Made by a program: the position numbers and the translations under genes
Assembly: GCF_000260965.1 (NCBI RefSeq)
Contig: NC_017856.1
Coordinates: 1,890,001 to 1,922,000, forward strand
Source of the DNA: Methylophaga frappieri
GTDB lineage: Bacteria > Pseudomonadota > Gammaproteobacteria > Nitrosococcales > Methylophagaceae
Length of the DNA stretch: 32,000 bases
Direction: 5' to 3'
Notes under the pieces: generated by a model
What the model was told of the DNA's origin: nothing
Seen by the model: the letters and a program-made list of their open reading frames with translations, nothing else
Database searches by the model: none
Shown here: positions 2,531 to 22,284 of the stretch, in pieces
Layout of the letters: every line of letters begins with the position of its first letter
Position numbering within the stretch: position 1 is the first letter of the stretch

Positions 2531-2977
2531 TTATTCTGGCAAAACCCGTAATTTGGCGGCAATAAAATCCTGATGGGCAACATGCAATAAGCCTGCTATT
2601 CTGCGAATGACATGTTGCTCTACCGCTTCCACGACATCATCTGACGCAGCCATCGTCCAAAGCTGCTCAATTAACTGAATTTTTTCTGGCATCGTGTATT
2701 GTTCATTGATGTGTCGGGTAAAAGCAAAGTAATCCGTCGCTTGCGCATGCGCTGTAATGGCATCCTGCTGGAGTTGTTTGGCTTCGACATCAGTGAGATC
2801 AAACTGTGTTTTCAGTAGCTTTTGCAGGGTCGCCACCTCCTCCGGCTGCTGTTCGTCATCGGCTGCCATCACTTCCACCAACAGTGCAGCGACGGCAAGC
2901 TGACTATCCCCTTTTGATACTGGCGTGGTCAGCGCATTGTCTGAAAAATCCAAAATTTTCTTGAGGGCATCGAGCAT
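2531..2977 (-). CDS. TerB-family (tellurite-resistance TerB-like) protein
   Basis: 148 aa, all-helical, with paired acidic motifs (VEVMAADDEQQPEE ... MAASDDVVEAVEQ) typical of small TerB/COG4103-type proteins. Confidence 0.7.
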   Translation of the reverse strand: MLDALKKILDFSDNALTTPVSKGDSQLAVAALLVEVMAADDEQQPEEVATLQKLLKTQFDLTDVEAKQLQQDAITAHAQATDYFAFTRHINEQYTMPEKIQLIEQLWTMAASDDVVEAVEQHVIRRIAGLLHVAHQDFIAAKLRVLPE

Positions 2978-3054: not shown

Positions 3055-4005
3055 TTATGACGGGCGTTGATTGTTTCCACTCACCGTGCGAAGTTTATTG
3101 ACTGCCAGCGATGCAGCCGCCGTCCGCGTTTCCACCCCCAGCTTGGTAAAAACATGCTCCATATGCTTATTAATCGTGCGGGGACTGGTACCTAGAATTT
3201 CACCAATACTTTTGTCTGTTTTGCCCAGAATCACCCAATGCAGGACTTCAGACTCCCGCTTAGTCAAGCTGAACAATGCCCGTAACGCTTCAATCTGCGC
3301 TGTTTCAGACTCTTCACGAAGTAAAATCAGCCACTGATCTTCACTTTGAAGATCTGCCGGATTAAAGATTAACCGCCCATTCGGGTTATTGATGATAAAT
3401 GATCTTAACCGCTGCTCGCCGCCCTGTTTTAGACTATCCAGCCACGTTTGAAGCTGTGCTGGCGTCTCTTGGTTGTTTAGCGCATCATCCGACGGACAAT
3501 AGGTGTTAATGAGCTGTCTGGCGAGCGGCGTCTGCCAGATGACTTTTCCTGTTTTGGGGTAAACGGCTATCGCCGCCTGACCGAAAGCATCCAAAGCGCC
3601 TTGGGTTTGGTTAATCAACCGGGAGTTTTTTAGGTGGGTGTTGATTCTTGCAATCACCTCAACCGGACTCAGCGGCTTAGTCACATAATCAATGCCGCCA
3701 GCAGAAAATCCGGAAACCACATGTTCCGACTCGGTCAGCCCGGTCATAAAAATCACTGGAATATGTCGGGTACTTAAATCTTGTTTCAGTGCGCGACACA
3801 CCTCAAACCCATCCATCCCCGGCATAAGGGCATCAAGCAAGACAATATCGGGTGACGCATTGCGGCTGATTTCCAATGCGGATTCACCATTATCCGCAAC
3901 CAGCACGGTATAACCGGACTCATCCAGCGCGTCGTGTAAAAATGCTAAGGTATCGGGCGTATCGTCAACGACAAGCACGACCGTATTCAACACAGATTCA
4001 GCCAT
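3055..4005 (-). CDS. Response regulator: REC domain, unknown ~120-aa middle domain, LuxR/GerE-type HTH
   Basis: REC motifs VLVVDD, DIVLLDALMPGMDG and KPL. C-terminal LTKRESEVLHWVILGKTDKSIGEILGTSPRTINKHMEHVFTKLGV. Its start overlaps the kinase stop by 8 nt (ATGGCTGA). Confidence 0.85.
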   Translation of the reverse strand: MAESVLNTVVLVVDDTPDTLAFLHDALDESGYTVLVADNGESALEISRNASPDIVLLDALMPGMDGFEVCRALKQDLSTRHIPVIFMTGLTESEHVVSGFSAGGIDYVTKPLSPVEVIARINTHLKNSRLINQTQGALDAFGQAAIAVYPKTGKVIWQTPLARQLINTYCPSDDALNNQETPAQLQTWLDSLKQGGEQRLRSFIINNPNGRLIFNPADLQSEDQWLILLREESETAQIEALRALFSLTKRESEVLHWVILGKTDKSIGEILGTSPRTINKHMEHVFTKLGVETRTAAASLAVNKLRTVSGNNQRPS

Positions 4006-7000
4006 TAGCTAATTTGGTTTCAATAAAGGTTTTGAGTTTACTCAGCTGCATGCGCGAAGCCATCTCACGTATTTCGGCAATAAACACCGCATCAGCCAGC
4101 TTGTCAGCTTCGATTTCGTCGATTAACTGACGAACACCAGCCAAATAACCGAGATTGAGTAACGATATCAGTTTTTCCATGATCTCACGAGGTGGTAAAA
4201 GCGATGATGAACGCTGAATTTCAGATTCTGCCTTGCTATCCGGCGTAATCCATTCTATGTTTAAGCGTTCACCAATCCAGTTGATTAACTCAATTAAATT
4301 AACGGGTTTAAGAATAAAATCCTTGGCGGTAATACCCGAACTATTTTCCAGATTTTTATCAAAAGCATTTGCCGAGATAATCCCAATAGTCACTGACGAT
4401 TTATGCACATTGCGGATTAAATGACAGGTCTCCCAGCCATCCATCTCCGGCATTGCTAAGTCCATAAAAATGATCTCAGGTTGAAACTCGGGATAAAGTT
4501 GCAAACATTCTGCACCTGATGCCGCCTCTTTCACCTCAAATCCCAGCGGAATCAGCACATTCAATAATAGCTCCCGATCAATCGGCTCATTATCAACAAC
4601 CAGAATTTTTCGGCGCGGCCCCTGATACCCCATTGGCATATGCGTGGCCAGCAATGGCAATGACTCTTCAACACGGACAGAAGGCAAGAACAAACGGATA
4701 GAAAACATCGTACCTTCGCCAACGACACTCTTAACGTGTAATACCCCACCCATAAGCTCTGTCAGTAATTTACTAATTGTCAGGCCCAAGCCTGTGCCAC
4801 CAATCCCTTGGGCACTGCTTCCACGAGCAAATGGTTCGAAGATATGCTCAAGTTCATTCGCCTTAATGCCCGGGCCAGTATCTTGTATTTCAATCGTTAA
4901 AAACTCACGAGCATGATTAAACCTTAACGAAATGCCCCCCTCACTGGTGTACTTGACCGCATTGCCAATGATGTTAATTAATATTTGACTGAGTCGTTTG
5001 TGGTCAGCACGCACCACGGCCGGCAAACCCGGGCTGATATCATAATCAAACTGTAAGCCTTTATTAATCGCTTGTAGTTCAAACATGCTGACAATTTGCT
5101 GAATATATTCCGGAAAACGCAGTGATTTGACGTCAAATTGCAATTTCCCGCTTTCAATCCTAGCGATATCCAATGTGCCTTCGATCAAAGACAAAAGGTG
5201 CTCGCCACTGCGTAAAATGACTTTAATGGCATTCTTTTGATCCGCTGGCACACTGCTCTTGTTATCCATCAACTGGGCATAGCCCAGAATACTGTTTAAC
5301 GGCGTTCGTAGTTCATGACTGATACCGGTGATATAACGACTTTTCGCTTCATTTGCCTGCTCCGCAGAAATACGCGCCTGTTGTAACTCCGCATCGGTTT
5401 GTTCATGCAAGCGAATTTCACGCTGCAATAATCGCGTTTGATGATTGGATTCTTGCTGCGCCACATTACGGCTTTGTGATGTCAAAATTAACCACCAGAC
5501 AATGATGCCACTAACCAGCACTAATGCAGCAAAAGCTTTAAAAAAGCCCACTCTAATTTCTGGCAAAATATGGGCAGCATTGGCTGTGGTCGTCAGCGAA
5601 ATATGCAGATAAATCAGACCAAATATTGCCCCCAGCAACAGCACCGTCATCCCCATTAACAGAATGTAATGACCAACGCCGTGTTGAATATAGCCCCAAA
5701 GTGATTTGGGCAATAGTCGCGTCATCCAGGCATACCATTGCGAGTCCAGTTTGGCATGCGGTTTACAGGCATCATTACAGCGTGCATCCAGACAACAGCA
5801 CAACGAACAAATAGGGCCTTGATAAGCTGGGCAATGGGCAATGTCATCAATTTCAAATTCACGCTCACAAATACTGCAAACAGCTCTGGTTATCCCTGTA
5901 CGAAACTGATGAGGCTCACGAGCCAGGTAATATTTCCCCTTGGTCCACCACGCAATTAATGGAGAACAAATTAAGGCGGCAAACATGGCGATAAATGAAG
6001 AAAAAGATTGCACTTCCAGGCCAAATACGCCGATAAATGCCAACACAGAAAGCACCGATGCAATGGCCATCGCGCCAACGCCAACCGGATTGATGTCGAA
6101 TAAGTAAGCACGTCTAAATTCAACCCCTTTAGGACTCAACCCAAGTGGCTTATTGATGACTAAATCTGCAACCACCGCCGTTATCCAGGAAATGGCAATA
6201 TTTGAATATAAACCGAGGATCTGTTCCAAAGCCTGAAACACATCGAATAACATCAGCATGGTAGCAATGACCACATTGAACAGCAGCCACACCACCCGCC
6301 CCGGATGGCTGTGCGTCAGCCGGGCAAAAAAGTTAGACCAAGCCAGCGAGCCGGCATAGGCATTGGTAATATTGATTTTGACCTGCGACAGCACCACAAA
6401 AAAGACTGTTACAGCCAACAGCACATCCGCATTATCAAAGACATAAGCAAAAGCAATGTGATACATATGCGTTGGATTAACGGCTTCTTCTACCGACCTT
6501 GTTGCGGTGATCGCAAGATAGGCAAGCAAGGCACCAGCAAACATTTTTATCATGCCGATAAAAATCCAGCCGGGTCCCGCCAAGATCACCCCTAAATGCC
6601 ACCGGAACCGGTTTTGGCTATTTTTTTCAGGCATAAACCGCAAGAAATCCACTTGTTCCCCAACTTGCGGAATCAGCGCCATGCCTATCGCAATGGCCGT
6701 TCCAAACATATAAATATTGAAGCCGGCGTCGTAGCCTGAACTGCCGGCAAAATGCATCAGTCCGCGTACCGTTTCAGGCTCTTTAGCAAAAATGAACACG
6801 AATGGCAGCATCATTAAAAACAACCAAACAGGCTGCGTAATCATTTGAATTCGACTGATGAGCGTCACCCCATGCGTGACAAGGGGAATAATCACAATGG
6901 CCGAAATCAGATACCAGACATAGATCGGCAGCTCGAAATACATGCTTAATGCATAGGCCATGATCACGGCTTCAAGCGCAAAGAGAATAAACGTGAAAGT

Positions 7001-7405
7001 GGCGTACACGAAGGACGAAATGGTTGATCCGATATAACCAAACCCGGCACCACGCGTCAGTAAGTCCATATCTAAGCCATATTTGGCTGCGTAATAACTG
7101 ATGGGCAGGCTGGTCAGGAAAATGATCAGGCTAATCGTCAGAATCGCCCAAAAAGCATTAAGAAAACCGAAGTTAACCGCCAGCGTACCGCCGATGACTT
7201 CCAGCACCAAAAAAGAAATAGCGCCTAAAGCCGTATTCGAGACACGAAAAATAGACCATTTTCTGAAAGCGTGGGGAGTAAAACGCAGGGCGTAGTCTTC
7301 CAGCGTTTCATTGGCGACCCACGTATTGTAATCACGGCGGATTTTGACAATACGCTGGGGCGCATTTTGGTCTGATGAATCCATCAACGCATCATTACTG
7401 CTCAA
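3998..7405 (-). CDS. Hybrid sensor histidine kinase/response regulator with an N-terminal 12-TM NCS1/purine-cytosine-permease-like domain
   Basis: Residues ~20-490 look like a permease (NETLEDYALRF..RKW motif, about 12 TM helices). A Cys-rich block spans 510-547 and two TM helices span ~578-643. H-box SHELRTPLN, HATPase GTGLGLTISK, and REC with FMDLAMPEMDG...KPV. The first codon is TTG at 7405 with AGGAA 5-6 nt upstream; the next in-frame ATG is 7384. Confidence 0.9.
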   Translation of the reverse strand: MSSNDALMDSSDQNAPQRIVKIRRDYNTWVANETLEDYALRFTPHAFRKWSIFRVSNTALGAISFLVLEVIGGTLAVNFGFLNAFWAILTISLIIFLTSLPISYYAAKYGLDMDLLTRGAGFGYIGSTISSFVYATFTFILFALEAVIMAYALSMYFELPIYVWYLISAIVIIPLVTHGVTLISRIQMITQPVWLFLMMLPFVFIFAKEPETVRGLMHFAGSSGYDAGFNIYMFGTAIAIGMALIPQVGEQVDFLRFMPEKNSQNRFRWHLGVILAGPGWIFIGMIKMFAGALLAYLAITATRSVEEAVNPTHMYHIAFAYVFDNADVLLAVTVFFVVLSQVKINITNAYAGSLAWSNFFARLTHSHPGRVVWLLFNVVIATMLMLFDVFQALEQILGLYSNIAISWITAVVADLVINKPLGLSPKGVEFRRAYLFDINPVGVGAMAIASVLSVLAFIGVFGLEVQSFSSFIAMFAALICSPLIAWWTKGKYYLAREPHQFRTGITRAVCSICEREFEIDDIAHCPAYQGPICSLCCCLDARCNDACKPHAKLDSQWYAWMTRLLPKSLWGYIQHGVGHYILLMGMTVLLLGAIFGLIYLHISLTTTANAAHILPEIRVGFFKAFAALVLVSGIIVWWLILTSQSRNVAQQESNHQTRLLQREIRLHEQTDAELQQARISAEQANEAKSRYITGISHELRTPLNSILGYAQLMDNKSSVPADQKNAIKVILRSGEHLLSLIEGTLDIARIESGKLQFDVKSLRFPEYIQQIVSMFELQAINKGLQFDYDISPGLPAVVRADHKRLSQILINIIGNAVKYTSEGGISLRFNHAREFLTIEIQDTGPGIKANELEHIFEPFARGSSAQGIGGTGLGLTISKLLTELMGGVLHVKSVVGEGTMFSIRLFLPSVRVEESLPLLATHMPMGYQGPRRKILVVDNEPIDRELLLNVLIPLGFEVKEAASGAECLQLYPEFQPEIIFMDLAMPEMDGWETCHLIRNVHKSSVTIGIISANAFDKNLENSSGITAKDFILKPVNLIELINWIGERLNIEWITPDSKAESEIQRSSSLLPPREIMEKLISLLNLGYLAGVRQLIDEIEADKLADAVFIAEIREMASRMQLSKLKTFIETKLANG

Positions 7406-7593
7406 CGTATTTCCTGACTGGTGTTGCCTGACAAACTAAGCGGATAATGCCAATATATCGTTATCATTTTTAGGTATCGACTCATAGTAACGCATGTCGC
7501 TATACCATTATCTACGCAATATAACGTATTGAACATCATTGCTCTGTTTTGCTAGCAATCGCATCGCTTTGTGCGCGGACAAGTCTGCTCTCT

Positions 7594-8202
7594 CTAACCC
7601 AACATTAAACCTTGCTTTTCAATAAAGGCAATAATGTTATCCAGACCCTGTTCTTTTTTCAGGTTACTAAACACAAAAGGACGCTCGCCTCGCATTCGTT
7701 TTGCATCACGGTCCATCACCTCCAGTGAGGCACCGACTAATGGCGCTAAATCTGTTTTATTAATAATCAATAAGTCTGATTTAGTAATACCTGGGCCTCC
7801 CTTACGGGGAATCTTTTCACCCGCAGACACATCAATCACATAAATAGTCAGATCAGAGAGTTCTGGACTAAACGTCGCCGCCAGATTGTCGCCACCGCTT
7901 TCGACAAAAACAATATCCAAGGGATCAAACCGCTGACTCAACTGAGCCACCGCCTCAAGATTCATCGAGGCATCTTCTCGAATCGCGGTATGCGGGCAGC
8001 CGCCTGTTTCCACACCAATAATACGATCTGCTGTTAAAGCTTCGTTACGTGTTAAAAACTCGGCATCTTCCTTGGTATAAATATCATTGGTTACCACAGC
8101 AATATTGTATTTGTCGCGCAAATGCTTACAGAGCGCTAATGTTAATGCGGTTTTACCAGACCCAACCGGGCCACCGATACCCACTCGCAATGGTTCTTTC
8201 AT
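7594..8202 (-). CDS. ureG: Urease accessory GTPase UreG
   Basis: P-loop [16 protein letters not shown] and NKTDL motifs. I chose ATG 8202 ([12 protein letters not shown]), which gives a typical length of about 202 aa. The ORF-track start at 8256 would overlap ureF by 35 nt. Confidence 0.93.
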
Positions 8203-8221
8203 TGTGGTGTCATCTCTCTTA

Positions 8222-8899
8222 TCAGGAACGGAATAATCTTGAATACTGCGTTTCATGCCGACAACCAGCGATACTTAACGCCGGACAAAAATTGTGAATC
8301 TCATCCTCCGGTAATTGCATGGCTTCGGTTATCAAGGTCGGGATGATCTGGCCAAGCTCAGACAAAATGCGCTGGCCGGCAACTTGTCCAAGTGGCACAG
8401 CCTTCATGATGGCGCTGACCTGGTTTTCTAAAAAAGACCAGGCATAAGCGTGCAGTGTGTGTTGCTGCGAAATAGCCCAATCATATGCGGTCAGGCTGAA
8501 AATCGTTGGAAATGCTGGTTGTTTGAGCTGTTTTGTTAATGCGCAAATGGGCGCCGGCCAGGTTGCCAGTTCATCTTGTAATCTTAATAAAGAATAGGCC
8601 ATTTGCTGAGTTTCCGCTAAGGCTTCACGACTGTCTCGACCCGCCTGATAAAAAGCATCCCAATATTGAATAGCTTCAAGGTTTTGATGTTGCCATGCTT
8701 GATATAACCTGAGTAACACCGGTAACTCAAAGTTGGCGTAATAAACTGATAAGACATCTTCTATCCATGTTGAAGCAGAACGGACATCTTTCACCACCGC
8801 CGTTTCAATCGCCCACTCCAGTCCTTGAGAATAGCTATATGCACCAACCGGCAGCATGGGACTGGCAAGCTGTAACAGTCGTGAAAGCGAAGCAGACAT
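8222..8899 (-). CDS. ureF: Urease accessory protein UreF
   Basis: [25 protein letters not shown] is a typical UreF N-terminus. The start overlaps the ureE stop (TAATG). Confidence 0.92.
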
Positions 8900-9390
8900 T
8901 ACGAATGGGAATGGTGGCCATGAGAATGGTGATGCCCATCATCATGATGGTGATGAACACCACCAGAATAGGCACCGGACTCGGGTTCAAACGGCGCCTG
9001 CATCAATTCGACCTGAACACCCAAACCAATCAGCATATCCTGCAAAACGCTATCTTGCTCCAGCTTCAGCCAGCCCGAACCAATTTCCAGTGGCACATGT
9101 CGGTTACCCAAGTGATACGCAGCCTGAGCGAGTGCTTGTGGGGTTTTTGCCGTGACGCGCATCACAGCCTGATCCGCAGCAACAACCGCGATCACCTCAC
9201 CCGACTCTGCCTGCAAAAAATCCCCACCCCGCAATATGGTGCCGCGTTTCAGGTAAAAAGCGGCTTCTGAGCCTGATTCCAAGGTCACTCTGATTCGGCT
9301 TTTTTGACGTAAATCGTAGGATAACGTTGCGACATCATCAACCGTCATCTCAGGTTGTGCGGCCACCAGCTTGGTTGTTACCGATAACAT
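8899..9390 (-). CDS. ureE: Urease metallochaperone UreE with a His-rich C-terminal tail
   Basis: GNRHVPLE motif and tail GGVHHHHDDGHHHSHGHHSHS. Confidence 0.93.
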   Translation of the reverse strand: MLSVTTKLVAAQPEMTVDDVATLSYDLRQKSRIRVTLESGSEAAFYLKRGTILRGGDFLQAESGEVIAVVAADQAVMRVTAKTPQALAQAAYHLGNRHVPLEIGSGWLKLEQDSVLQDMLIGLGVQVELMQAPFEPESGAYSGGVHHHHDDGHHHSHGHHSHS

Positions 9391-9401
9391 GGCTTTCCTT
9401 A

Positions 9402-11120
9402 CTAAAACAAAAAATAACGCTGCGCCATCGGCAGCTCTGTCGCGGGTTCGCAGATCAGTAAATCACCATCGGCAAGTACCTGATAAGTCTCCGGATCAAC
9501 GGAAACATGCGGTGTTGCATCATTTAATACCATGTCTTTTTTGCTGATATTACGACAGTTTTTGACGGCAATTAATGGTTTTTGCAACTGTAACCCCTGT
9601 ACAGCCGGATTGTGCAGCGCGGCTTCAGAAATAAAGGTCAATGATGATTGAACAGCTTTGCCAAAACTGCCAAACATAGGGCGATAATGAACTGGCTGTG
9701 GCGTTGGAATCGAAGCATTCGGGTCCCCCATTGCCGCCGCAGCAATCATACCGCCCTTCAAAATCAGACTGGGCTTGACGCCAAAAAAAGCCGGTCGCCA
9801 CAAGACTAAGTCAGCAAATTTACCGGGCTCAATTGAACCAACTTTATGTGCGATACCATGGGTTATTGCGGGGTTAATCGTATATTTGGCAATGTACCGT
9901 TTGATACGAAAATTATCGGCGTCGCCTTCACCACGTTGCGCATCTTGCGCCAGCGCGCCACGCTGTAATTTCATTTTATGTGCCGTCTGCCAAGTTCGAA
10001 TAATCACCTCACCAACCCGCCCCATCGCTTGCGAGTCCGAAGACATCATCGAAAAAGCCCCCGTATCGTGCAAAATATCTTCCGCAGCAATGGTTTCTCG
10101 ACGAATCCGTGATTCAGCAAAAGCCACATCCTCCGCAATAGCCGGATCCAGATGATGGCAAACCATCAGCATATCCAGATGCTCATCTAGCGTATTGACG
10201 GTAAAGGGTCGAGTCGGGTTGGTTGAAGAAGGCAATACGTTCGGCGAACTTATCGCTTTAATAATATCCGGGGCATGGCCGCCGCCAGCACCTTCGGTGT
10301 GAAAGGTGTGAATTGTCCGCCCCTTGAAGGCGGCCAGTGTTGTTTCGACAAAGCCGGATTCGTTCAACGTATCTGAGTGAATCGCAACTTGAATATCCAT
10401 CTCATCGGCAACCGACAAGCAAGTATCAATAGCGGCTGGCGTTGTTCCCCAGTCCTCATGCAATTTCAAACCAATAACACCGGCCTCAACTTGCTCCTTG
10501 GCAGGTTGCGGTTGAGATACATTACCCTTACCAAAAAACCCCAAATTCATCGGAAAGGCTTCAGCGGCTTCGAGCATGCGATGAATATGCCAAGGACCTG
10601 GCGTACAAGTCGTTGCATAAGTGCCGGTAGCCGGCCCGGTTCCGCCACCCAGCATGGTGGTGACACCAGACATCAGCGCTTCTTCAATTTGTTGTGGGCA
10701 AATCCAGTGAATATGACTATCGATGCCGCCTGCGGTCAAAATCATGCCTTCACCGGCAATAATTTCGGTCCCAGCCCCGATTGGAATCGTGACATCCGGC
10801 TGAATATCCGGATTACCTGCTTTACCAATCGCCCAGATATGGCCATCTTTAATAGCGACATCGGCCTTGATGATGCCAGTTATCGCATCGATGATTAACG
10901 CATTGGTTATAACGGTATCGGCGACTTCTGCAGCAGGCAATTGTGACTGTCCCATGCCATCGCGAATGACTTTACCCCCACCGAACTTGACCTCCTCACC
11001 ATGCGTGGTCATATCCTGCTCAACTTCTATCCAAAGATCGGTATCGGCCAATCGAATTTTGTCACCAACCGTTGGACCAAACATTTCGGCATAGGCCTGC
11101 CGATCAATTTCCAGACTCAT
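9402..11120 (-). CDS. ureC: Urease alpha (catalytic) subunit
   Basis: 572 aa with [28 protein letters not shown] and MVCHHLD motifs. The start overlaps the ureB stop (ATGA). Confidence 0.97.
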
Positions 11121-11425
11121 GACAAAGCCCCCATTACCTTGCCAGCAAAACCATAGACATGTCGTAATCCAGCTAAAGCAACTAACTCCACCGTCCGCGT
11201 CTGGCCGGGCTCAAAACGCACTGCCGTTCCCGGGGCAATATTTAATCGAAATCCATAGGCTTGCTGACGATCAAACTGTAAGGCCGTATTCACCTCATAA
11301 AAATGATAATGTGAGCCAACTTGAACCGGTCGATCGCCACTATTGGCAACATCGATAGTGACGCACTGTCGCCCCACATTCATCGGTAGTTTGCCTGTTT
11401 TTACGCGCATTTCTCCGGGTATCAT
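11117..11425 (-). CDS. ureB: Urease beta subunit
   Basis: MIPGE...[17 protein letters not shown]...FEPG, 102 aa. Confidence 0.96.
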
Positions 11426-11434
11426 GTTGCTACC

Positions 11435-11737
11435 TCATACTATCGGGTTGTGAACCGTGACCAGCTTGGTGCCATCAGGGAAAGTGGCCTCAACCTGAAT
11501 TTCAGGCAACATGTCAGCAATCCCTGCCATGACATCCTCCCGCGACAACAAGGTTGCGCCATAATCCATCAGCTCGGCAACCGTCTGCCCATCCCGCGCC
11601 CCTTCCATAATCGCCGCTGATATATAAGCAACGGCTTCTGGATAATTTAATTTCAGGCCGCGATTTTTGCGCCGCTCAGCCACTAGTGCCGCAGTAAAAA
11701 TTAATAATTTATCTTTTTCTCTTGGCGTCAGTTCCAT
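11435..11737 (-). CDS. ureA: Urease gamma subunit
   Basis: [23 protein letters not shown]...[14 protein letters not shown], 100 aa. Confidence 0.96.
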
Positions 11738-11756
11738 TGTGAATCAGCCTTCATTT

Positions 11757-12638
11757 TCAAGTAGCCCAGATACGAGGGCGAATCGCTGGTCGAGCAGCAT
11801 ACCAAGGACGTAATACCTGCCACAAACCATCAAAATAGTGTTTTGCATCCTGAGCACAAACGCCCATATATCTCGCTGTAAACACTTCTGGCAATGCCGA
11901 GACGCCATAATCGGCTGAACGCTTGGGCACAATATCACGACAAGCCTGTAAGACGTCAGATGGGACTTCACCTGCGGCAACCACAAAGCTGCCAAAGACT
12001 GGCCGACTGTCCAACCCGGCTAATGCCATACGAACACGGCTACTTGGCCGAATAACTGCTGACTCATTCCAGATTAGCCGTTTGTCGCGTTTAATTTGTA
12101 ATCGTTGCTGAAAACGCCCCTGATGCCAATATTCACCACTGGCCTGGCGTCCTAAACAAACCACTTCCCAGCCGGCAAAAACAGCAGATTCACATAACTG
12201 AACTTGTGTTTCTAATCTCACCTCAGCTGCATCAAAGACAATATTTTCTTGCGGTAACCATTCCAACAAACTGGCGGTCTTCAATGAAAAATTAATGTGT
12301 TGACTTGCCTGACGACCGGCAGATTTATACCATTTCGTCGCACCCGGCGTGGTAAGCAAAGCTGCCGTATGTGGTTGCATTTGGGTTGATAATTGCAGTT
12401 TATCGCCACCCGCAACCCCACCAGGCGGATGAACAATAACCCCGTGCGCGAGATCTGAGCCTTCAGGATAGAGCATTTTTTGCACCACCAGAGGACCACG
12501 ATGTTGACGGCGTGCCAATATCGTCTGATCTGCACGCTTTGCAAAATTTAGGCTTAGGCTGGCATCCCAGCCAGCCATCGCCTGGTTGGTAACAGTATGA
12601 TTAGCTTTCGTTGGTAATAAAGCAGGCTCGGTGCGCAT
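11757..12638 (-). CDS. ureD: Urease accessory protein UreD
   Basis: GWDASLSLNF, HRGPLVVQK, HPPGGVAGGD and PRIWAT motifs. The ORF-track start at 12686 is a TTG. I chose the first ATG at 12638 (AAGGAG 15 nt upstream), so the start is uncertain. Confidence 0.85.
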   Translation of the reverse strand: MRTEPALLPTKANHTVTNQAMAGWDASLSLNFAKRADQTILARRQHRGPLVVQKMLYPEGSDLAHGVIVHPPGGVAGGDKLQLSTQMQPHTAALLTTPGATKWYKSAGRQASQHINFSLKTASLLEWLPQENIVFDAAEVRLETQVQLCESAVFAGWEVVCLGRQASGEYWHQGRFQQRLQIKRDKRLIWNESAVIRPSSRVRMALAGLDSRPVFGSFVVAAGEVPSDVLQACRDIVPKRSADYGVSALPEVFTARYMGVCAQDAKHYFDGLWQVLRPWYAARPAIRPRIWAT

Positions 12639-12705
12639 GATTAAATTGAGCAACTCCTTGATCTCGTATAGACCGCAACATAGCAAACCACCAAGACTCT
12701 TTCAC

Positions 12706-13395
12706 CTAAACGGTCAGGAATTTTTTAATCATGGCAGCATCGACATTCTCACGTCGATCTTCATGAATAAACTTGCCTTTTTCAATCACAATGATCCGAT
12801 CAGCAATCTCCATGGTAAAACTGAGCACCTGCTCGGAGACAATGATGGTAATTTCCCGCATTTTACGTATTTCATTCAATACCTTAGCGATATCTTTAAT
12901 GATAGATGGCTGGATACCCTCTGTGGGCTCATCCAACAACAACACCTTCGGATTGGTTACCAAGGCGCGGGCAATAGCTAATTGCTGCTGCTGACCACCA
13001 GACAGATTGCCACCTTTGCGATGGCGCATATCATGCAACACGGGAAACAAAGCAAAAATTTCATCGGGAATCGACTTCATTTTTGATACCTGCAACCCGG
13101 TTTCAATATTTTCCTGCACCGTCAGCGTTGGAAAAATCATGCGACCTTGCGGGACGTAAGCAATACCACTGGCAACACGTTTATGACTTTCAAGTGCCGC
13201 AACCTCGGTATCAGCAACACGCACTTTACTGGCCTGACTGGGTAAAATGCCCATCAACGATTTAAACAAGGTGGTTTTACCCATACCATTTCGGCCCATA
13301 ATCGCCAACGTTTCGTTTTTGTCGGCTTTGAAGCTGATGTCATGTATCACCTGACTTTGACCGTAACTGACCTGCAAATTTTCTACTTCAAACAT
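12706..13395 (-). CDS. urtE: Urea ABC transporter ATP-binding protein UrtE
   Basis: Walker A GRNGMGKTT, signature LSGGQQQ, Walker B LLLDEP. 229 aa, last gene of the urt block. Confidence 0.9.
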   Translation of the reverse strand: MFEVENLQVSYGQSQVIHDISFKADKNETLAIMGRNGMGKTTLFKSLMGILPSQASKVRVADTEVAALESHKRVASGIAYVPQGRMIFPTLTVQENIETGLQVSKMKSIPDEIFALFPVLHDMRHRKGGNLSGGQQQQLAIARALVTNPKVLLLDEPTEGIQPSIIKDIAKVLNEIRKMREITIIVSEQVLSFTMEIADRIIVIEKGKFIHEDRRENVDAAMIKKFLTV

Positions 13396-13416
13396 GGCGA
13401 GACTCTCCGCTTCAAA

Positions 13417-14163
13417 TTAATGTCCAAGATAGACTTCAATAACTTTTTCATCCGCCTGAACTTTGTCCATTGACCCTTCCGCCAAAATTTTTCCTTGGTG
13501 AAGCACAGTGACTTTACGGGCGATTTTCTTAACAAATTCCATGTCATGTTCGATGACAATAACCGAGCGGTTTTCGCAAATTCGATTTAGTAACTCAGCA
13601 GTTTCGTCCCGTTCCTTGGCGCTCATGCCGGCAACTGGCTCATCGAGCATCAATAGCTCCGGGTCTTGCATGAGCAACATGCCGATTTCGAGCCATTGTT
13701 TTTGTCCATGACTGAGAATGGCGGCTTCCGTATCAAGAAAACGCTCCAATTGAATTTCTCTTGCCACATCATGAACGCGTTGCGTGACGGCATCGGTCGT
13801 CTTGAAAAACAAACTACCAAACACCCCTCGCCCTTCCGGGTAGGAAACTTCCAGGTTTTGGTAAACCGTCAGATTTTCGTAAATGGACGGTGTCTGAAAC
13901 TTACGTCCAATGCCCGAACGCACGATTTCATGCTCGGCCATTTTAGTCATTTCTTTGTTTTTAAAACTAATGGAGCCAGAGCTGCACTTGGTTTTACCGC
14001 AGATCAAATCCAGCAACGTCGTTTTACCCGCGCCATTGGGACCAATGACAACACGAAGCTCGTTTTTATCAATATACATCGTCAAGCTGTCGACAGCTCT
14101 AAAGCCATCAAAGGACACCGTCAGATCTTCAATCGCTAACAGGAAATCTGTTGTGGTCGTCAT
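13417..14163 (-). CDS. urtD: Urea ABC transporter ATP-binding protein UrtD
   Basis: Walker A GPNGAGKTT, LSHGQKQ, LLMLDEP. The start overlaps the urtC stop (TAATG). Confidence 0.9.
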   Translation of the reverse strand: MTTTTDFLLAIEDLTVSFDGFRAVDSLTMYIDKNELRVVIGPNGAGKTTLLDLICGKTKCSSGSISFKNKEMTKMAEHEIVRSGIGRKFQTPSIYENLTVYQNLEVSYPEGRGVFGSLFFKTTDAVTQRVHDVAREIQLERFLDTEAAILSHGQKQWLEIGMLLMQDPELLMLDEPVAGMSAKERDETAELLNRICENRSVIVIEHDMEFVKKIARKVTVLHQGKILAEGSMDKVQADEKVIEVYLGH

Positions 14164-15332
14164 TATTTGGCTCCCTCTGTAGTGGGTTCAGACGCAACCT
14201 GTTTTGGTTGAGTTTTTTCCGTTTCGACTTGCTCTGAGTTAGTAAAAAATGCCCGTAAAAAAGGGACTTTCGGGGCATATTTATTCCAAATCCCTGCCAG
14301 ACCGTTCGGGAAGAACATGACTACCGCAATAAACAGGCCGCCCATCAGGAATAACCATAATTCGGGGAAAGTTTCGGAAAAGGTTGTTTTACCCGCATTC
14401 ACCAGCAGCGTGCCGTAAACCACGCCGATCAATGACATGCGGCCACCTACTGCGGCAAAGATAACCATTTCTATTGACGGGACGATACCGACAAACGAGG
14501 GTGACATGAAACCGACCTGCAAGGTAAACATGGCGCCACCAATCGCGGCAATCACCGCAGAGATACAAAAGATAAAGATCTTAAAGTTAGACACGTCATA
14601 TCCGGAGAACCGAACGCGATCTTCTTTATCTTTCATGGCAAGCAACAGCTGACCGAACTTGCTGGTCAGGATGAACTTGCCGAGCATAATAGCGCCCAAC
14701 AGCAAAATGGCGTTCAAGAAGTACAGCAGATATTTCGCTGAATCCGTTCGAATATCCCAGCCATTCAAGGTTCGCAGGTCGGTGATACCGTTAATACCGC
14801 CGGTATAGCCCTGTTGACCGACAATCAGTACTGTCAGGATAACGGCAATGACCTGGGTAATGATGGCAAAATAGACCCCCCCCACCCGGCGCTTGAACAT
14901 CGAATAACCAATGATAAAAGCAAATACTGCCGGTACCACGAGAATCGCAATCAAGGTAAAAGTAAAGCTTTCAAACGGAACCCAGAACCAAGGTAATTCA
15001 TAGAGCTGATTCCAATCCATAAAGTCCGGAATACCTGGCGTTGTCTGGATCTTGGTGCTTTCCGGGTCTGATGCTTCCAGTTTTAAAAACATGGCCATGG
15101 CATAACCACCAAGACCAAAGAAAATACCTTGACCCAAGCTCAAAATACCACCATACCCCCAGAGCAAGACCAAGCTGATTGCGGCAAAAGCATAGGTCAG
15201 ATACTTACCAACCAGATTTAACCGAAACAGATCCAGCGCCAGTGGCAAAATCACCAGAATCAGTACAGCGAGAATACCTATTGCCAGGGCACCACGCTTA
15301 CCACCTAACAGTCGTTCATAGACAAAATTCAT
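14163..15332 (-). CDS. urtC: Urea ABC transporter permease UrtC
   Basis: 389-aa polytopic LivM-like permease with AGGAGA 6 nt upstream of the ATG. Confidence 0.9.
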   Translation of the reverse strand: MNFVYERLLGGKRGALAIGILAVLILVILPLALDLFRLNLVGKYLTYAFAAISLVLLWGYGGILSLGQGIFFGLGGYAMAMFLKLEASDPESTKIQTTPGIPDFMDWNQLYELPWFWVPFESFTFTLIAILVVPAVFAFIIGYSMFKRRVGGVYFAIITQVIAVILTVLIVGQQGYTGGINGITDLRTLNGWDIRTDSAKYLLYFLNAILLLGAIMLGKFILTSKFGQLLLAMKDKEDRVRFSGYDVSNFKIFIFCISAVIAAIGGAMFTLQVGFMSPSFVGIVPSIEMVIFAAVGGRMSLIGVVYGTLLVNAGKTTFSETFPELWLFLMGGLFIAVVMFFPNGLAGIWNKYAPKVPFLRAFFTNSEQVETEKTQPKQVASEPTTEGAK

Positions 15333-15349
15333 CTTTTATCTCCTGCTGA

Positions 15350-16273
15350 TTATTTACGAACTTTGATTGAGAACAAGCCTTCAGGGCGCATCATCAAAAT
15401 GATGACGAGGGCCAGCAAGGTAAAGACTTTGGCCATGGAACCACTGATGAAGAATTCCAGAATTGATTGTGCCTGGGCGATAGTAAAGGCTGAGGCAATG
15501 GTGCCAAACAAGCTGGCTGCGCCACCAAAAACAACCACCATAAAGGTATCAACGATGTACAAAGAACCGGATGTCGGGCCAGTCGATGCAATAGTGGTAA
15601 ATGCGGCGCCAGCAACCCCCGCAATACCGCAGCCAAGGGCAAAGGTCAGCCTGTCAACCTGTTTGGTATTGATACCCACGGCGCCACTCATGACACGGTT
15701 TTGCGTTGTCGCACGCACGTTCAACCCCCAGGTTGAGCGATACATCAAGAGAAACACCCCAATGGTGACGATAGTTGTCAGGCCAAGAACAAACATGCCA
15801 TTAATTGGGATGAAAATAGAATCTGTTGGCATCCACGATCCCATTAGCCAGTCGGGTAATGTGGGGCTAACTTCACGCGCACCAAAAATCGACCGGAAAG
15901 ACTGTTGCATGATGAGGCTCAAGCCCCAGGTCGCAAGCAAGGTATCCAGTGGCCGTTTATAAAGATGCCTTATCAAGACAAATTCGGTGAGATAACCAAA
16001 TAGTCCGGCGACAAAAAAGGACGCGATAATCGCGATGAAAAAGTAATATCCCATCAGATCAGGAAAATAGCTTTGGGTCATCACCGAAAGCAAATAGGTT
16101 GTATATGCCCCCATTGCCATAAATTCACCATGGGCCATATTAATGACGCCCATTTGCCCAAAGATGATTGCCAAGCCAAGTGCCATCAGAAGTAACACGC
16201 TGAACAGACTAATCCCGGCAAAGCCCTGCATCGCAAAAATTGACGTCAATTCTTGTATTGAATACTCACCCAT
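15350..16273 (-). CDS. urtB: Urea ABC transporter permease UrtB
   Basis: 307-aa LivH-like permease (GVINMAHGEF motif) with a GGAG RBS. Confidence 0.9.
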   Translation of the reverse strand: MGEYSIQELTSIFAMQGFAGISLFSVLLLMALGLAIIFGQMGVINMAHGEFMAMGAYTTYLLSVMTQSYFPDLMGYYFFIAIIASFFVAGLFGYLTEFVLIRHLYKRPLDTLLATWGLSLIMQQSFRSIFGAREVSPTLPDWLMGSWMPTDSIFIPINGMFVLGLTTIVTIGVFLLMYRSTWGLNVRATTQNRVMSGAVGINTKQVDRLTFALGCGIAGVAGAAFTTIASTGPTSGSLYIVDTFMVVVFGGAASLFGTIASAFTIAQAQSILEFFISGSMAKVFTLLALVIILMMRPEGLFSIKVRK

Positions 16274-16340
16274 AATGGATACTCCGAAACATTTTCCATT
16301 GAACCGAATGGTTATTAGTGATTGTGAATCTGGCTCAGGT

Positions 16341-16367
16341 AGCAGGCTGGCGAGAGGCCAGCCTGCT
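16341..16367 (-). promoter_or_regulatory. Intercistronic stem-loop between urtA and urtB (perfect 11-bp stem, 5-nt loop, no U-tract)
   Basis: AGCAGGCTGGC-gagag-GCCAGCCTGCT lies inside the 118-nt urtA-urtB spacer. Confidence 0.6.
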
Positions 16368-16391
16368 CTGTTCCAAGTCAGTCGTTAAGGC

Positions 16392-17642
16392 TTATTGGTA
16401 GCCTTCAGGGAAAGGATTTGGTTCAATCAGGTCAGACTCATAGACCACGGTTGCCTGACCGTCTTTGTTCCATTTACCAATGCGGGTTTTACTCCACAAA
16501 TGGTGGTTAGGATGTAACTTGACGTAGCCTTCTGGCGCCGTATCGAGTTCGATGTCACCGGCTTCAGAGACGGCCACTACCTTATCGACATCAAAGCTAC
16601 CGGCCTTTTCGACAGCGGCTTTCCACAACCATGGACCAAGATAAGCCGCTTGAGTCACGTCACCAATGACACTGTCATCGCCATGCATTTCCTTGAAGGC
16701 AGCAACGAATTCAGCATTGTTTGGGTTATCCAGACTCTGGAAATACTTCATAACTGAGTAAAAGCCTTCCAGGTTTTCACCACCGATACCCAATACTTCG
16801 TCTTCGGTTACCGATAACGTCAGCAAGGTTTGTTTGTCTGACGTAATACCAGCGGCATTCAGCTGTTTAAACCAGGCAACATTACTGCCACCGACTACTG
16901 CCGCAAAAATAACATCGGGTTTTTTCAGACGAATCTTATTGATTACCGAACCAAACTGGGTGTCACCCAATGGTTTGTACTCTTCACCCACTACTTTGCC
17001 GCCCAACACTTTTTCAATATGAGTACGGGCAATCTTCATTGAGGTTCGTGGCCAGATATAATCAGAGCCAATTAAATAAAACGTTTTGGCATCCTTTTCT
17101 TCAGCCACCCAGTCCAAACCTGCCAGAATTTGTTGTGTCGCTTCCTGGCCGGTGTAGATAACATTTTTGGATTGCTCAAGACCTTCATAAAAAGTCGGGT
17201 AATAGAGCAGACCATTTTCCTTTTCAAACACTGGCAGCGCCGCTTTTCGTGATGCCGATGTCCAGCATCCGAACACAGCAGCAACATCATCATTCACTAA
17301 CAGCTTTCTCGATTTTTCAGCAAAAGTTGGCCAGTCACTCGCGCCATCCTCTTGAATGATTTCAATTTGCCGGCCAAGAATGCCACCACTTTCGTTGATT
17401 TGTTTAATCGCCAGTTTTTCTGCTTCCTGTGCACCGGTTTCACTGATTGCCATCGTGCCAGTTAAAGAATGCAAAATACCGACTTTGACGGTATCGTCAG
17501 TGACGGCCAATCCCGTGGTATTCACTTCGGCAGTAGGGTAATCTGCTGCCATCGCGCTACTGGTAATCAATCCGGCAGCCACCATTGCACTGAACAGGGC
17601 ACCAGTTTTGCCTAAAAATTTTCGTCGGCTAAAGTAACTCAT
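16392..17642 (-). CDS. urtA: Urea/short-chain-amide ABC transporter substrate-binding protein UrtA (FmdD-like)
   Basis: LivK/amide-binding fold. I chose ATG 17642 (AGGAGA 7 nt upstream). The N-terminus MSYFSRRKFLGKTGALFSAMVAAGLITSSAMA looks like a twin-arginine signal. The longer ORF-track version runs into fmdB. Confidence 0.9.
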   Translation of the reverse strand: MSYFSRRKFLGKTGALFSAMVAAGLITSSAMAADYPTAEVNTTGLAVTDDTVKVGILHSLTGTMAISETGAQEAEKLAIKQINESGGILGRQIEIIQEDGASDWPTFAEKSRKLLVNDDVAAVFGCWTSASRKAALPVFEKENGLLYYPTFYEGLEQSKNVIYTGQEATQQILAGLDWVAEEKDAKTFYLIGSDYIWPRTSMKIARTHIEKVLGGKVVGEEYKPLGDTQFGSVINKIRLKKPDVIFAAVVGGSNVAWFKQLNAAGITSDKQTLLTLSVTEDEVLGIGGENLEGFYSVMKYFQSLDNPNNAEFVAAFKEMHGDDSVIGDVTQAAYLGPWLWKAAVEKAGSFDVDKVVAVSEAGDIELDTAPEGYVKLHPNHHLWSKTRIGKWNKDGQATVVYESDLIEPNPFPEGYQ

Positions 17643-17707
17643 CGTGTATCTCCTATCAGAAATTGAAGGTGAACTACGTTGTTCCCTACAGGTTGGTTTG
17701 TTAAAAA

Positions 17708-18043
17708 TTAGTGTCCAAGCATCCAGGGCCTGGCGGTCTTCTTGGTTTGCATCTGCAATCCATTTTTTGCACCAGCAGATTTGGCTGAATTGGCAGAACA
17801 GGTGTGGGTACCCGAACAGCCACAACTGGAACGTCGCAGGGTTTTCGGTTCATGCGCTGATTTTTCATTTCGCTCTTTGGCGACCCGTGTTGGTCTATCC
17901 ATCAAAGCCAGATAAGGCGCCGTAATAATCCGGCTGGCTTTGCCATGACATTCCGGACAAATCATGTCTTCATTGGCTTGTGCCAACTTGCGTAGCGCCG
18001 AAAACTCCCCACAGGTAGCACAACGATAATCATAAATAGGCAT
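17708..18043 (-). CDS. fmdB: FmdB-family zinc-ribbon putative regulatory protein
   Basis: MPIYDYRCATCGEF...ICPECHG (CxxC-x18-CxxC) followed by a Ser/Cys/Gly-rich tail. It sits directly downstream of the formamidase gene with a GGGGAGGGG RBS. Confidence 0.8.
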   Translation of the reverse strand: MPIYDYRCATCGEFSALRKLAQANEDMICPECHGKASRIITAPYLALMDRPTRVAKERNEKSAHEPKTLRRSSCGCSGTHTCSANSAKSAGAKNGLQMQTKKTARPWMLGH

Positions 18044-19329: not shown

Positions 19330-20466
19330 CTAGAACTGCAGTTGCATTGAAACGACGAATTGATCCTGATCTGCCAATCCTTCTCTTTCCAGGTCGCGAT
19401 AAACCGCAGTGACGGAGGCGTTGTAACCATCAATGAAGTAGTTCACCCCAAAATCTGTACGCTCTGTTTCGCCCGCATCAGAGTCAAAGCTCTGGTAGCG
19501 AACAAATGGCATGAACTGGCCCCAACCCACTTTTTGGTTGAAGATATAGCCCGTACTGACGTAGTAAGCTTCGCCCTGCTCAGACAAAAACACATCATCG
19601 GTGTCGTAATCGAAGTAGGCGGCCTCAAGAGATACCGCACCTGCGGCTAGTTTTTTCTCTACCAGTAAATCCACCGTCCACTGGGAATAATCACCAACGG
19701 CCGTTGTAGAAGCCGCACCATCCCCTTTATGACGACCTGCCACACCAATAGTGAATATGTCTTTGGTGCCAAGATAATTACCGGTGCCGTAATAACCCGG
19801 CTCTTTATCCCAAAAGCTATATTGCAGACGGCCGGCATACATCAGGTCATCATCCTGGTTTGGATTGGTCGCATTACCGCCCCGGCCAGCTTCATTACCG
19901 AGTCCACTGAATTCAAAAATTTTGTCCGCTTCGAACAGTCCAAATGAGTAAGCCAGCCGCTGATCGAATGCCGTTGCTACCAGCGCGACACCATCATCGC
20001 GACCGATAGTGCCGCCATTCCAGCCATAGCGTGCGGTAATATTTGCCCAGTAGCCGTCACCGGAGGTGTAGTAAGGTCCGGCCATGTTGGCGCGACTGCT
20101 TGGTGACAAGAATCGACCCGCCCATAGCGCCATGTCTGGTGTGAACTGAAATATCCCGGCCGCATCAATAATTTGAAAAGAGTCATTGCCACCGGATTTT
20201 TCCGAATTGAACATCCCTTTGATGTATTTATTTAACGAGCCCGAAACATACAAACGCGCACTATCCAGTTCAAAATCGTTGGTGTTGCCACCATCACTTG
20301 CCGCGTCTTCAATATTGCTATAGCTGCCACGCAGACCAAAGCCAACGCTGATGTATTGATCTTCACCAAAGGTAATCGTGCCCGCGGCCTGTGATGTTGC
20401 CATCGGAGCAAGCGTGGTTGTCGAAGCCAGCGCGACCAGATAGGCGACTTTGTTCATTTTTTTCAT
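19330..20466 (-). CDS. fmdC: Outer-membrane porin, FmdC-like (short-chain amide/urea porin)
   Basis: Signal peptide MKKMNKVAYLVALASTTTLAPMATSQA, alternating beta-strand pattern, C-terminal ...SMQLQF. It is the first gene of the fmd block. Confidence 0.7.
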   Translation of the reverse strand: MKKMNKVAYLVALASTTTLAPMATSQAAGTITFGEDQYISVGFGLRGSYSNIEDAASDGGNTNDFELDSARLYVSGSLNKYIKGMFNSEKSGGNDSFQIIDAAGIFQFTPDMALWAGRFLSPSSRANMAGPYYTSGDGYWANITARYGWNGGTIGRDDGVALVATAFDQRLAYSFGLFEADKIFEFSGLGNEAGRGGNATNPNQDDDLMYAGRLQYSFWDKEPGYYGTGNYLGTKDIFTIGVAGRHKGDGAASTTAVGDYSQWTVDLLVEKKLAAGAVSLEAAYFDYDTDDVFLSEQGEAYYVSTGYIFNQKVGWGQFMPFVRYQSFDSDAGETERTDFGVNYFIDGYNASVTAVYRDLEREGLADQDQFVVSMQLQF

Positions 20467-20659
20467 TCTTTTTCTCCCGAAAACTTACTGATAACAGTTG
20501 CTGTTGAATTCGCTCCGGTGCGCATCAACCATGAGGTTCGGGATTCATACTAGTCAGGTGTGTGCCGTGCTGAAATACGTCAAATTGCGTAGTCGTGTTT
20601 TGGTCAGTTTCCGTTAGGCTATTGCTAACCGACTCTATATATCTGGCAGAGGCAAACTC

Positions 20660-22283: not shown

Positions 22284-22284
22284 G

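Follow-up and report, generated by a model that had tools for sequence, protein, structure and literature searches.

CbrA and CrbS/MxtR are described as histidine kinases with a fused transporter domain of the SLC5/SSS type (PMC5715377, PMC6591292), and in Ks-Amt5 of 'Candidatus Kuenenia stuttgartiensis' an Amt domain is fused to a histidine kinase to form an ammonium sensor (PMC5764959). Here we analyzed a 32,000 nt stretch of Methylophaga frappieri DNA (NC_017856.1, positions 1,890,001 to 1,922,000; hereafter the window), in which the genes for a hybrid sensor histidine kinase and a response regulator follow a block of genes for formamide, urea and short-chain amides. The N-terminal part of this kinase is a transporter-like domain whose nearest structural relatives belong to the nucleobase:cation symporter-1 (NCS1) family. 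No paper on an NCS1-fused kinase, and none on a bacterial membrane receptor for urea or small amides, was found in the full-text literature. A preliminary description of this DNA, drawn from the sequence alone, had stated that transporter-fused kinases are known and that its author knew of no characterized NCS1-type one; the literature agreed, with CbrA, CrbS/MxtR and Ks-Amt5 as the closest systems. Annotation pipelines have already met the architecture, some members being named automatically by JGI as a 'purine-cytosine permease-like protein' fused to a histidine kinase. Cluster-member names looked up for ten diverse representatives were all uninformative, and no study of the architecture was found in the literature.

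As for the nitrogen compounds themselves, the AmiC/AmiR system of Pseudomonas aeruginosa senses short-chain amides and induces the amidase operon, and the fmd cluster of Methylophilus, inducible by formamide and urea, has been on record since the 1990s. In M. methylotrophus, this cluster is repressed by ammonia, and a 'putative positive regulator' is mentioned with no sensor described (PMC10781810). Our results give good support to a regulatory role of the kinase-regulator pair of M. frappieri for urea and amide genes. We lean towards the view that the kinase, with its transporter-like input domain, senses urea and/or short-chain amides such as formamide as part of a two-component system. The pair is also a candidate for the sensor of the Methylophilus fmd cluster.

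The kinase gene (3998..7405) encodes a protein of 1135 aa and lies on the minus strand. Its open reading frame starts with TTG preceded by AGGAA, and the product matches an annotated M. frappieri protein, a 'two-component hybrid sensor and regulator', with 100% identity. Pfam matches were confined to the C-terminal half, where HisKA/DHp (residues 687-753, 5147..5347; PF00512, E=4.6e-18) with the phospho-acceptor His697 in SHELRTP is followed by HATPase_c (residues 801-907, 4685..5005; PF02518, E=1.2e-26) and a fused REC domain (residues 934-1042, 4280..4606; PF00072, E=1.2e-19) with Asp982 in FMDLAMP. Both His697 and Asp982 are intact and conserved in the family alignment. In front of these domains lie, in order, an NCS1/CodB-like LeuT-fold domain with 12 transmembrane (TM) helices (residues ~35-490, 5936..7303), a cytoplasmic module with eight cysteines (8-Cys module; residues ~505-550, 5756..5893), and two further helices, TM13 and TM14 (residues ~576-640, 5486..5680), which run on into the helix leading to DHp. 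Behind the REC domain the protein ends in a four-helix bundle (residues 1073-1134, 4001..4189), modeled by AlphaFold2 with a predicted local distance difference test score (pLDDT) of ~90. We considered this tail as a degenerate Hpt domain and ruled it out, as it has no His, no Pfam match and a best Foldseek E value of 0.54 against PDB. A Pfam scan of the whole kinase found no Hpt domain, and Hpt is present in some distant relatives (P0139). The fusion is not an artefact, since the same architecture recurs in at least 8000 protein clusters and 530 species-level genomes.

This layout, with a transporter-like sensor, a Cys-rich cytoplasmic block, two more TM helices and DHp, HATPase and REC domains, had been proposed in the preliminary description and was confirmed throughout by Pfam, AlphaFold2 and hydropathy. 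The distance of 188 nt from the ureG stop to the kinase start was also accurate (gap 7406-7593), and the N-terminal motif NETLEDYALRF followed by RKW is present, with a spacing of five residues rather than six.

The model of kinase residues 1-660 (AlphaFold2, 50 homologues as input; mean pLDDT 67, predicted TM-score 0.63) places twelve helices in residues 52-487, followed by a small Cys region rich in beta structure and by two long helices at 576-605 and 610-659. Hydropathy repeated this 12+2 pattern, with peaks at TM13 and TM14. When the model was compared with PDB by Foldseek, the top five matches were all Mhp1 and CodB, ahead of every other LeuT-fold family. Mhp1 was matched in three conformations (E=7e-7 to 5e-6; target TM-score 0.68 for the best) and CodB at E=5e-6 to 8e-6 (target TM-score 0.70 for the match at E=5e-6); these alignments span 443-479 columns, that is, the whole transporter, with target TM-scores of 0.64-0.70. 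AdiC represented the next family (E=1.3e-4), and it ranked lower together with CAT1, Nramp, NKCC, CHT1, LeuT and vSGLT, all with E values of at least 1e-4; the SSS member vSGLT came at rank 45 (E=2e-3). Thus, the preliminary description, which had called the N-terminus a complete domain of the NCS1/purine-cytosine-permease type and had named Mhp1 and CodB as the structures to compare, was right about the fold and the nearest relatives.

Sequence comparisons pointed to the same family at lower scores. Of the NCBIfam models, only that of CodB (NF008241) matched the N-terminus, at residues 36-224, from TM1 to about TM6, at E=2.6e-7, a sub-threshold match with 29.8 bits against a cut-off of 326. 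A profile built from the N-terminal-only members of the kinase's family had CodB as its sole PDB match (E=1.1e-3), and hhalign against E. coli CodB gave a probability of 64.5% across TM1-TM4. A phmmer search with the kinase N-terminus against PDB sequences returned noise only. We regard the domain as a divergent NCS1 outlier whose strict membership in the family is borderline.

The gene context points to urea, formamide and short-chain amides as ligands. The block lies upstream of the kinase and is encoded on the same strand; it is headed by a gene for an FmdC/ExtI-like outer-membrane porin (19330..20466; NCBIfam porin_ExtI E=1.4e-24, below the cut-off), followed by fmdA for formamidase (18063-19286; NCBIfam FormamaseFmdA, 786 bits with a cut-off of 500) and fmdB for a zinc-ribbon protein (17708-18043; TIGR02605). 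Next come the urtABCDE genes for a urea/short-chain-amide ABC transporter (12706..17825; UrtA by TIGR03407, 521 bits against a cut-off of 492.75, and permease and ATPase subunits by Pfam) and the ureDABCEFG genes for urease structural and accessory proteins (7594..12686; Pfam).

To compare neighborhoods, we scanned one genome per species and found relatives in 530 genomes. We kept 80 loci with 66-90% identity, from Methylophaga, Methylophilaceae, Oxalobacteraceae and Gallionella, and identified their neighboring genes by tblastn with the window proteins; 80 further loci were taken from metagenomes scanned with an alignment of a more distant clade. The pair adjoins urtABCDE, fmdAB, an fmdC-like porin gene or ure genes in ~140 related loci, which come from metagenomes and from several lineages of Proteobacteria. 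In Methylophaga and Methylophilaceae, the pair lies downstream of urtBCDE-ureDABCEFG or urt. One locus (L009) lacks urease, and there the pair directly follows fmdC-fmdAB-urtABCDE; in another (L015) it stands in front of such a block, and in Methylophilus genomes (L038, L041, L061) beside urt and ure. It is convergent with a urtABCDE-like operon and an fmdC-like porin gene in the Oxalobacteraceae (Duganella, Massilia, Rugamonas) and precedes urtABCD-like genes in Gallionella (L074). In metagenomes, pairs with homologues 52-64% identical to the kinase are divergent from urtABCDE-fmdAB or ureABC(EFG), and a second urtA-like operon is often found downstream of the regulator gene.

Two other architectures keep the same company. 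A stand-alone protein consisting of the 12 TM helices and the 8-Cys module is encoded 6-22 nt upstream of fmdA-fmdB in two loci (L095, 1420-3111; L108, 498-2168); such proteins are candidate formamide or amide permeases, and they suggest that transport by the NCS1-like domain is plausible. In a third locus (L146, 131-4974), a non-hybrid version of the kinase stands with an NtrC-type sigma-54 activator beside fmdA-fmdB, which represents an alternative regulatory wiring. As linkage to fmd and Urt-type genes is seen in three architectures and several gene orders, common ancestry of one operon is no easy explanation for it. A 2026 genome paper on Ectopseudomonas guguanensis also lists fmdA and urtABCDE with a two-component hybrid kinase and a LuxR-family regulator, as annotation and with no comment. 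The preliminary description had tied the architecture to nitrogen catabolism and staked this on an N-terminal domain of the NCS1/APC fold and on homologues near nitrogen-catabolic genes; computationally, both the fold and a strong linkage to urt, fmd and ure in several arrangements were found.

The partner response regulator (316 aa; 3055..4005, minus strand) is encoded next to the kinase, its start overlapping the kinase stop by 8 nt, and the two genes have this order and a common strand in nearly all loci that have downstream sequence. The regulator consists of a REC domain (residues 10-121, E=2.9e-27) and a GerE/LuxR-type helix-turn-helix (HTH; residues 246-301, E=2.2e-16; both Pfam), which are separated by a middle region of ~120 aa (residues 125-245, 3271-3633, minus strand) with no Pfam match at E<=10. 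By eye this region looks PAS-like, and it might provide a second input from the cytoplasm; PleD aligns with the regulator in two stretches. Three conserved regions of the pair are not covered by Pfam, namely the Cys module, the C-terminal tail of the kinase and this middle region.

A conserved palindrome is a candidate for the site to which this regulator binds. The 16-bp palindrome TACGYMAWWTKRCGTA occurs in exactly two copies in the window (pattern TACG-N8-CGTA; 0.23 expected in 32 kb). One copy, TACGCAATATAACGTA, lies in the ureG-kinase gap (7513..7528), ~108 nt upstream of the kinase start, with a sigma-70-like promoter (7480-7452) between it and the kinase gene; the other, TACGTCAAATTGCGTA, lies ~110 nt upstream of the fmdC-like porin gene (20576..20591). 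The position upstream of the kinase is kept in Methylophaga and Methylophilaceae loci, and the palindrome is also found upstream of fmdC-like genes in seven related loci (L009, L015, L050, L063, L069, L072, L077). Two looser matches in the window, at 16511 and 17979, are inside the urtA and fmdB coding sequences and were treated as chance. Upstream of the fmdC-like gene, inspection by eye revealed no convincing sigma-54 promoter, and a sigma-70 scan of this region was also empty.

All perfect inverted repeats were then counted without bias in 52 divergent intergenic regions and in shuffled controls. TACGT-N6-ACGTA was present in 21 of 26 urtA-type divergent regions, with a maximum of 2 in the shuffles. 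In the 160 loci (2.3 Mb), we counted 96 copies of TACG-N8-CGTA where 26 were expected, 92 of them no more than 400 nt upstream of kinase, urtA or urtA-like, or fmdC-like genes; the same scan found none in loci of the GGDEF-EAL type, which are without the regulator. The eight free inner positions are not random and yield the consensus TACG-Y-M-A-W-W-T-K-R-CGTA, that is, two inverted heptamers 2 bp apart (7-2-7; TACGYMA-WW-TKRCGTA). The 7-2-7 layout is typical of NarL-family regulators with a GerE HTH, and the NarL heptamer is TACYYMT. We read the palindrome as the candidate binding site of the regulator. The system would then be autoregulated through the copy in the ureG-kinase gap and would also control fmdAB, urt, ure and the gene for the fmdC-like porin. 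The preliminary description had supposed an output through the LuxR-type partner, and the conserved palindrome upstream of kinase, fmdC-like, urtA and urtA-like genes lends support to it.

Beside the observed domain architecture, fold relationship, neighborhood and DNA motif, we infer a ligand, a possible continued transport, a direction of regulation and a phosphotransfer path as follows. The NCS1/CodB-like LeuT-fold domain would bind urea or a short-chain amide in its central pocket and might carry it through. The resulting conformational change would pass by way of the 8-Cys module and the TM13-TM14 hairpin to the coiled coil and DHp and alter autophosphorylation of His697. The phosphate would then reach the REC-GerE regulator either directly, with Asp982 of the fused receiver as a modulator or sink, or via an Hpt protein encoded elsewhere. 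The regulator would bind TACGYMA-WW-TKRCGTA at its own operon and at the fmdC-like gene, and would switch on the fmdC-like gene, fmdAB, urtABCDE and ureDABCEFG.

The same output could be reached if the kinase were a co-sensor and UrtA or the Urt transporter the real ligand receptor. The NCS1-like domain would then report the activity or occupancy of the transporter or of UrtA, or an ion or proton flux, and the genes controlled would still be fmd, urt and ure. Co-sensor pairs are known, such as DctA/DcuS and LysP/CadC. The tightest linkage of the kinase is indeed with urtABCDE-type transporter genes and not with urease, and the core of the membrane domain is unusually invariant across output types, which suits a mechanical role better than varied ligand specificity. 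However, the stand-alone copies are found with fmdAB and no urt in the sequenced flanks (L095, L108), and a full 12-TM pocket fold with a conserved polar core exceeds what a docking surface needs. We consider this explanation unlikely.

The 8-Cys module itself could be the sensor, and its distribution bears on this point. The cysteines C510, C513, C525, C533, C536, C537, C543 and C547 are each kept in 64-67 of 67 diverse representatives (31-69% identity), stand-alone proteins included, so that the Cys-rich block of the preliminary description is nearly invariant. The module has no Pfam match at E<=10. AlphaFold2 modeled it at low pLDDT as short beta-hairpins and a helix, resembling a zinc-ribbon knot, and it probably binds metal. 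The only similarity of the module outside the family, to the C1 zinc finger of GEF-H1, was non-significant (E=0.31) and was not used as evidence.

An exhaustive HMMER search of 1.84 billion cluster representatives (50% identity clusters) yielded 1694 relatives of the sensor module at E<=1e-3, including 418 at E<=1e-30. The outputs fused to it are HisKA-HATPase-REC with or without Hpt, GAF-GGDEF-EAL, PAS-GAF-PAS-GGDEF-EAL, GGDEF alone and PAS-kinase, and some relatives of ~560 aa stand alone and end right after the Cys module. Examples with GGDEF, EAL, GAF or PAS outputs are P0125, P0126 and P0132 and the proteins encoded at L086 7968-11258 and L089 7980-12323, PAS-kinase-REC being among these types. 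The varied C-termini and the stand-alone forms indicate that the unit of 12 TM helices and eight cysteines is an autonomous and reusable input module. No nitrogen genes were found in the neighborhoods of the GGDEF-EAL and PAS-kinase variants (L086, L089); because these neighborhoods are unrelated, they are of no help in identifying the ligand.

If the Cys module were the true sensor, responding to zinc, to nickel for urease, to an Fe-S cluster or to redox state, the membrane domain would be a degenerate anchor. The conservation of the cysteines even in stand-alone proteins and the proximity of the system to the nickel enzyme urease and its accessory genes would fit. Yet the membrane core is equally well conserved, many linked loci have fmd and urt with no urease (L009, L097, L101 and others), and in the model the cysteine spacing and beta-hairpins look like a structural knot of the zinc-ribbon type. 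A Cys-based sensor therefore appears distinctly improbable to us.

The putative pocket bears on the nature of the ligand. In CodB, cytosine is sandwiched by Trp108 of TM3 and Phe204 of TM6 and hydrogen-bonded by Gln105, the aromatic pair is stated to be conserved throughout NCS1, and Na+ is bound by Thr278 and Thr279 of TM8 (PMC9379551). In three independent alignments, Gln105, Trp108 and Phe204 corresponded to Thr138, Leu141 and Leu244 of the kinase, so that, as far as these correspondences depend on the alignment, the ring-stacking pair of NCS1 was not found in the kinase domain. Of the 67 representatives, 52 have Phe and 11 have Leu at position 141, Leu being the residue of the clade of the kinase itself, and 63 have Leu at position 244. 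The replacement of ring-stacking residues by Leu fits a small, non-aromatic ligand, and the pocket, judged from these alignments, does not seem to be of the nucleobase or hydantoin type.

Other features are held in common with CodB, namely the D-F-x-R-F motif after TM6 (D253-F-L-R256-F in the kinase) and an N-x-x-N-x-Y-type motif in TM8, where QVKINITNAYAGSLAWSN resembles CodB WTTNDNALYASGLGFAN. The hidden Markov model (HMM) alignments stop short of TM8. An ungapped alignment by hand placed K343 and I344 opposite Thr278 and Thr279, and K343 is Lys in 66 of 67 representatives. The amine of Lys343 may take the place of Na+ at the Na2 site; a lysine amine replaces Na+ in other LeuT-fold carriers such as ApcT. 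The strongly conserved membrane core of the 67 representatives comprises E69, E145, Q247, E250, Q251, D253, R256, Q341, K343, N345, N348, Y350, W356 and N358.

It is very improbable that the kinase senses a ureide or nucleobase, with allantoin, hydantoin, cytosine or uracil bound and urea only a downstream product. In favor of such a ligand, the closest structures are those of the hydantoin transporter Mhp1 and the cytosine transporter CodB, and urea arises from ureide breakdown; the CodB residues that hold the base are nevertheless exchanged. Beside homologues, the window genes that recur, among those tested, are urt, ure, fmd and porin genes only, and no allantoin genes are linked, in a survey that did not search directly for allantoin or pyrimidine catabolic genes. 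As the NCS1 domain is divergent, scores below the cut-offs and lacks the aromatic pair, urea or a small amide is the likelier ligand. From the ureide or amide sensor of the preliminary description we thus retain the amide and urea part, which the gene context supports, and drop the ureide part in view of Leu141 and Leu244 and of the gene neighborhoods surveyed.

Nitrogen status is normally sensed in the cytoplasm by NtrBC/PII systems. That the pair answers nitrogen limitation in general rather than a specific amide or urea would agree with the ammonia repression of the M. methylotrophus fmd cluster (PMC10781810) and with the NtrC-type sigma-54 activator of the L146 variant, but it is scarcely credible given that a sensor with 12 TM helices and a permease-like fold implies a solute that is external or transported, and that the linkage is specific to urt, fmd and ure, not to glnA, amtB or other Ntr targets.

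Several points weigh against the kinase as a urea and amide sensor with an NCS1-type pocket. The domain fails the curated score thresholds for NCS1. Of the profile comparisons suggested by the preliminary description, those with CodB were positive at sub-threshold scores (NCBIfam, family profile, hhalign), and Pfam, including its NCS1 model, matched nothing in kinase residues 1-535 at E<=10. The sequence alignments with CodB reach only TM1-TM6, which makes the residue correspondences uncertain, above all in TM8, and the model of residues 1-660 is only moderately confident. The putative pocket residues are near-identical, except for T138 to C/S, in GGDEF-EAL-fused members that have no nitrogen-gene neighbors; the ligand may accordingly be more general than urea or amides, or the conserved residues may be mechanistic rather than specificity-giving. 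In addition, loci with the kinase gene divergent from ureA have the palindrome upstream of a downstream urtA-like gene rather than between kinase and ureA. Finally, the lack of an Hpt domain in the kinase leaves direct transfer from His697 to the regulator or an Hpt protein from elsewhere.

With these points taken into account, we still favor the urea and amide sensor. As a tentative extension, which may well prove too broad, the 12-TM and 8-Cys unit could be a widespread receptor or 'transceptor' module for urea, formamide and small amides, and the pair the missing sensor through which formamide and urea induce fmd, urt and ure genes in soil Proteobacteria and methylotrophs; in that case the GGDEF-EAL variants would tie the same solutes to c-di-GMP, and signals would be transmitted by the Cys module as a new kind of metal-binding element.

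Some further features of the window were recorded beside these genes. The listed urtA open reading frame, with a TTG start at 17825, overlaps fmdB by 118 nt (17708-17825); because homology to UrtA does not begin before residue 113, urtA probably starts further downstream than listed. The 118-nt urtA-urtB gap contains a perfect 11-bp stem with a 5-nt loop (AGCAGGCTGGC / GCCAGCCTGCT; 16341-16367), which may be an intercistronic stabilizer or attenuator. Antisense to ureC, positions 10679-10968 (plus strand) match the Rfam family 5_ureB_sRNA (RF02514) with 79 bits; the model goes back to a Helicobacter antisense RNA over the urease large-subunit gene, and the match may reflect mere conserved coding sequence and no real small RNA. 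Divergent from the fmdC-like gene, with the palindrome in the common intergenic region, lies an open reading frame of 165 aa (20660-21157, plus strand) with no Pfam or NCBIfam match, a homologue of which (43-45% identical) has the same position in L009 and L015. Beside the fmd block, 21159-24982 encodes a GNAT and peptidase-C39-like (DUF3335) protein, a DUF2817 protein and a divergent RimK-like ATP-grasp protein with an RLAN domain. A TerB-domain gene (2531-2977, minus strand) follows the regulator gene directly on the same strand; it did not recur in the related loci tested and is probably outside the system.

The block has the gene set of the fmdCABDEF cluster of Methylophilus methylotrophus, with genes for a porin, formamidase, FmdB and a binding-protein-dependent transporter of the Urt type. 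In the environment, urea and small amides rank among the major nitrogen sources. For their detection by these bacteria the locus provides the best candidate so far, and a concrete one, made up of a kinase, its partner regulator, a predicted operator and a putative target operon. AmiC/AmiR solves a related task with a cytoplasmic binding protein of the periplasmic-binding-protein fold and an RNA-binding antiterminator, with no membrane sensor and no phosphorelay. The partner regulator resembles NarL/FixJ regulators in its REC domain and GerE HTH and, by sequence of the candidate operator, in inverted TAC-led heptamers 2 bp apart, but differs in the extra ~120-aa region between REC and HTH. The sensor domain has its best structural matches over all 12 TM helices in Mhp1 and CodB, from which it differs by the 8-Cys tail, the signaling domains and scores far under the family cut-offs.

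Among transporter-fused kinases, CbrA and CrbS/MxtR are similar in having a whole LeuT-fold secondary transporter as the N-terminal sensor and in controlling nutrient-utilization genes, and CrbS is likewise a hybrid kinase with a fused receiver. The carrier of CbrA and CrbS is of the SLC5 type, whereas that of M. frappieri is NCS1/CodB-like, with vSGLT only at rank 45. Their linker is a STAC domain, where the M. frappieri kinase has the 8-Cys module and two TM helices; for residues 490-686, Pfam matched nothing with a model set in which the presence of STAC is unconfirmed. Their partner is of the NtrC type and not of the GerE/LuxR type. Ks-Amt5 also re-uses a nitrogen-compound transporter fold as the membrane sensor of a fused kinase, but its fold, a trimeric Amt/Rh channel rather than a LeuT-fold NCS1-like carrier, its ligand and its linker all differ. 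NCS1 thereby joins SLC5 and Amt among the few transporter folds that have been re-used as sensors of kinases, and an unannotated module of 12 TM helices and eight cysteines is defined that is found in thousands of signaling proteins. The transporter-fused principle was already known; what sets the M. frappieri kinase apart is the NCS1/CodB-like carrier, the connector of eight cysteines and two TM helices, the LuxR-type partner and the predicted ligand class.

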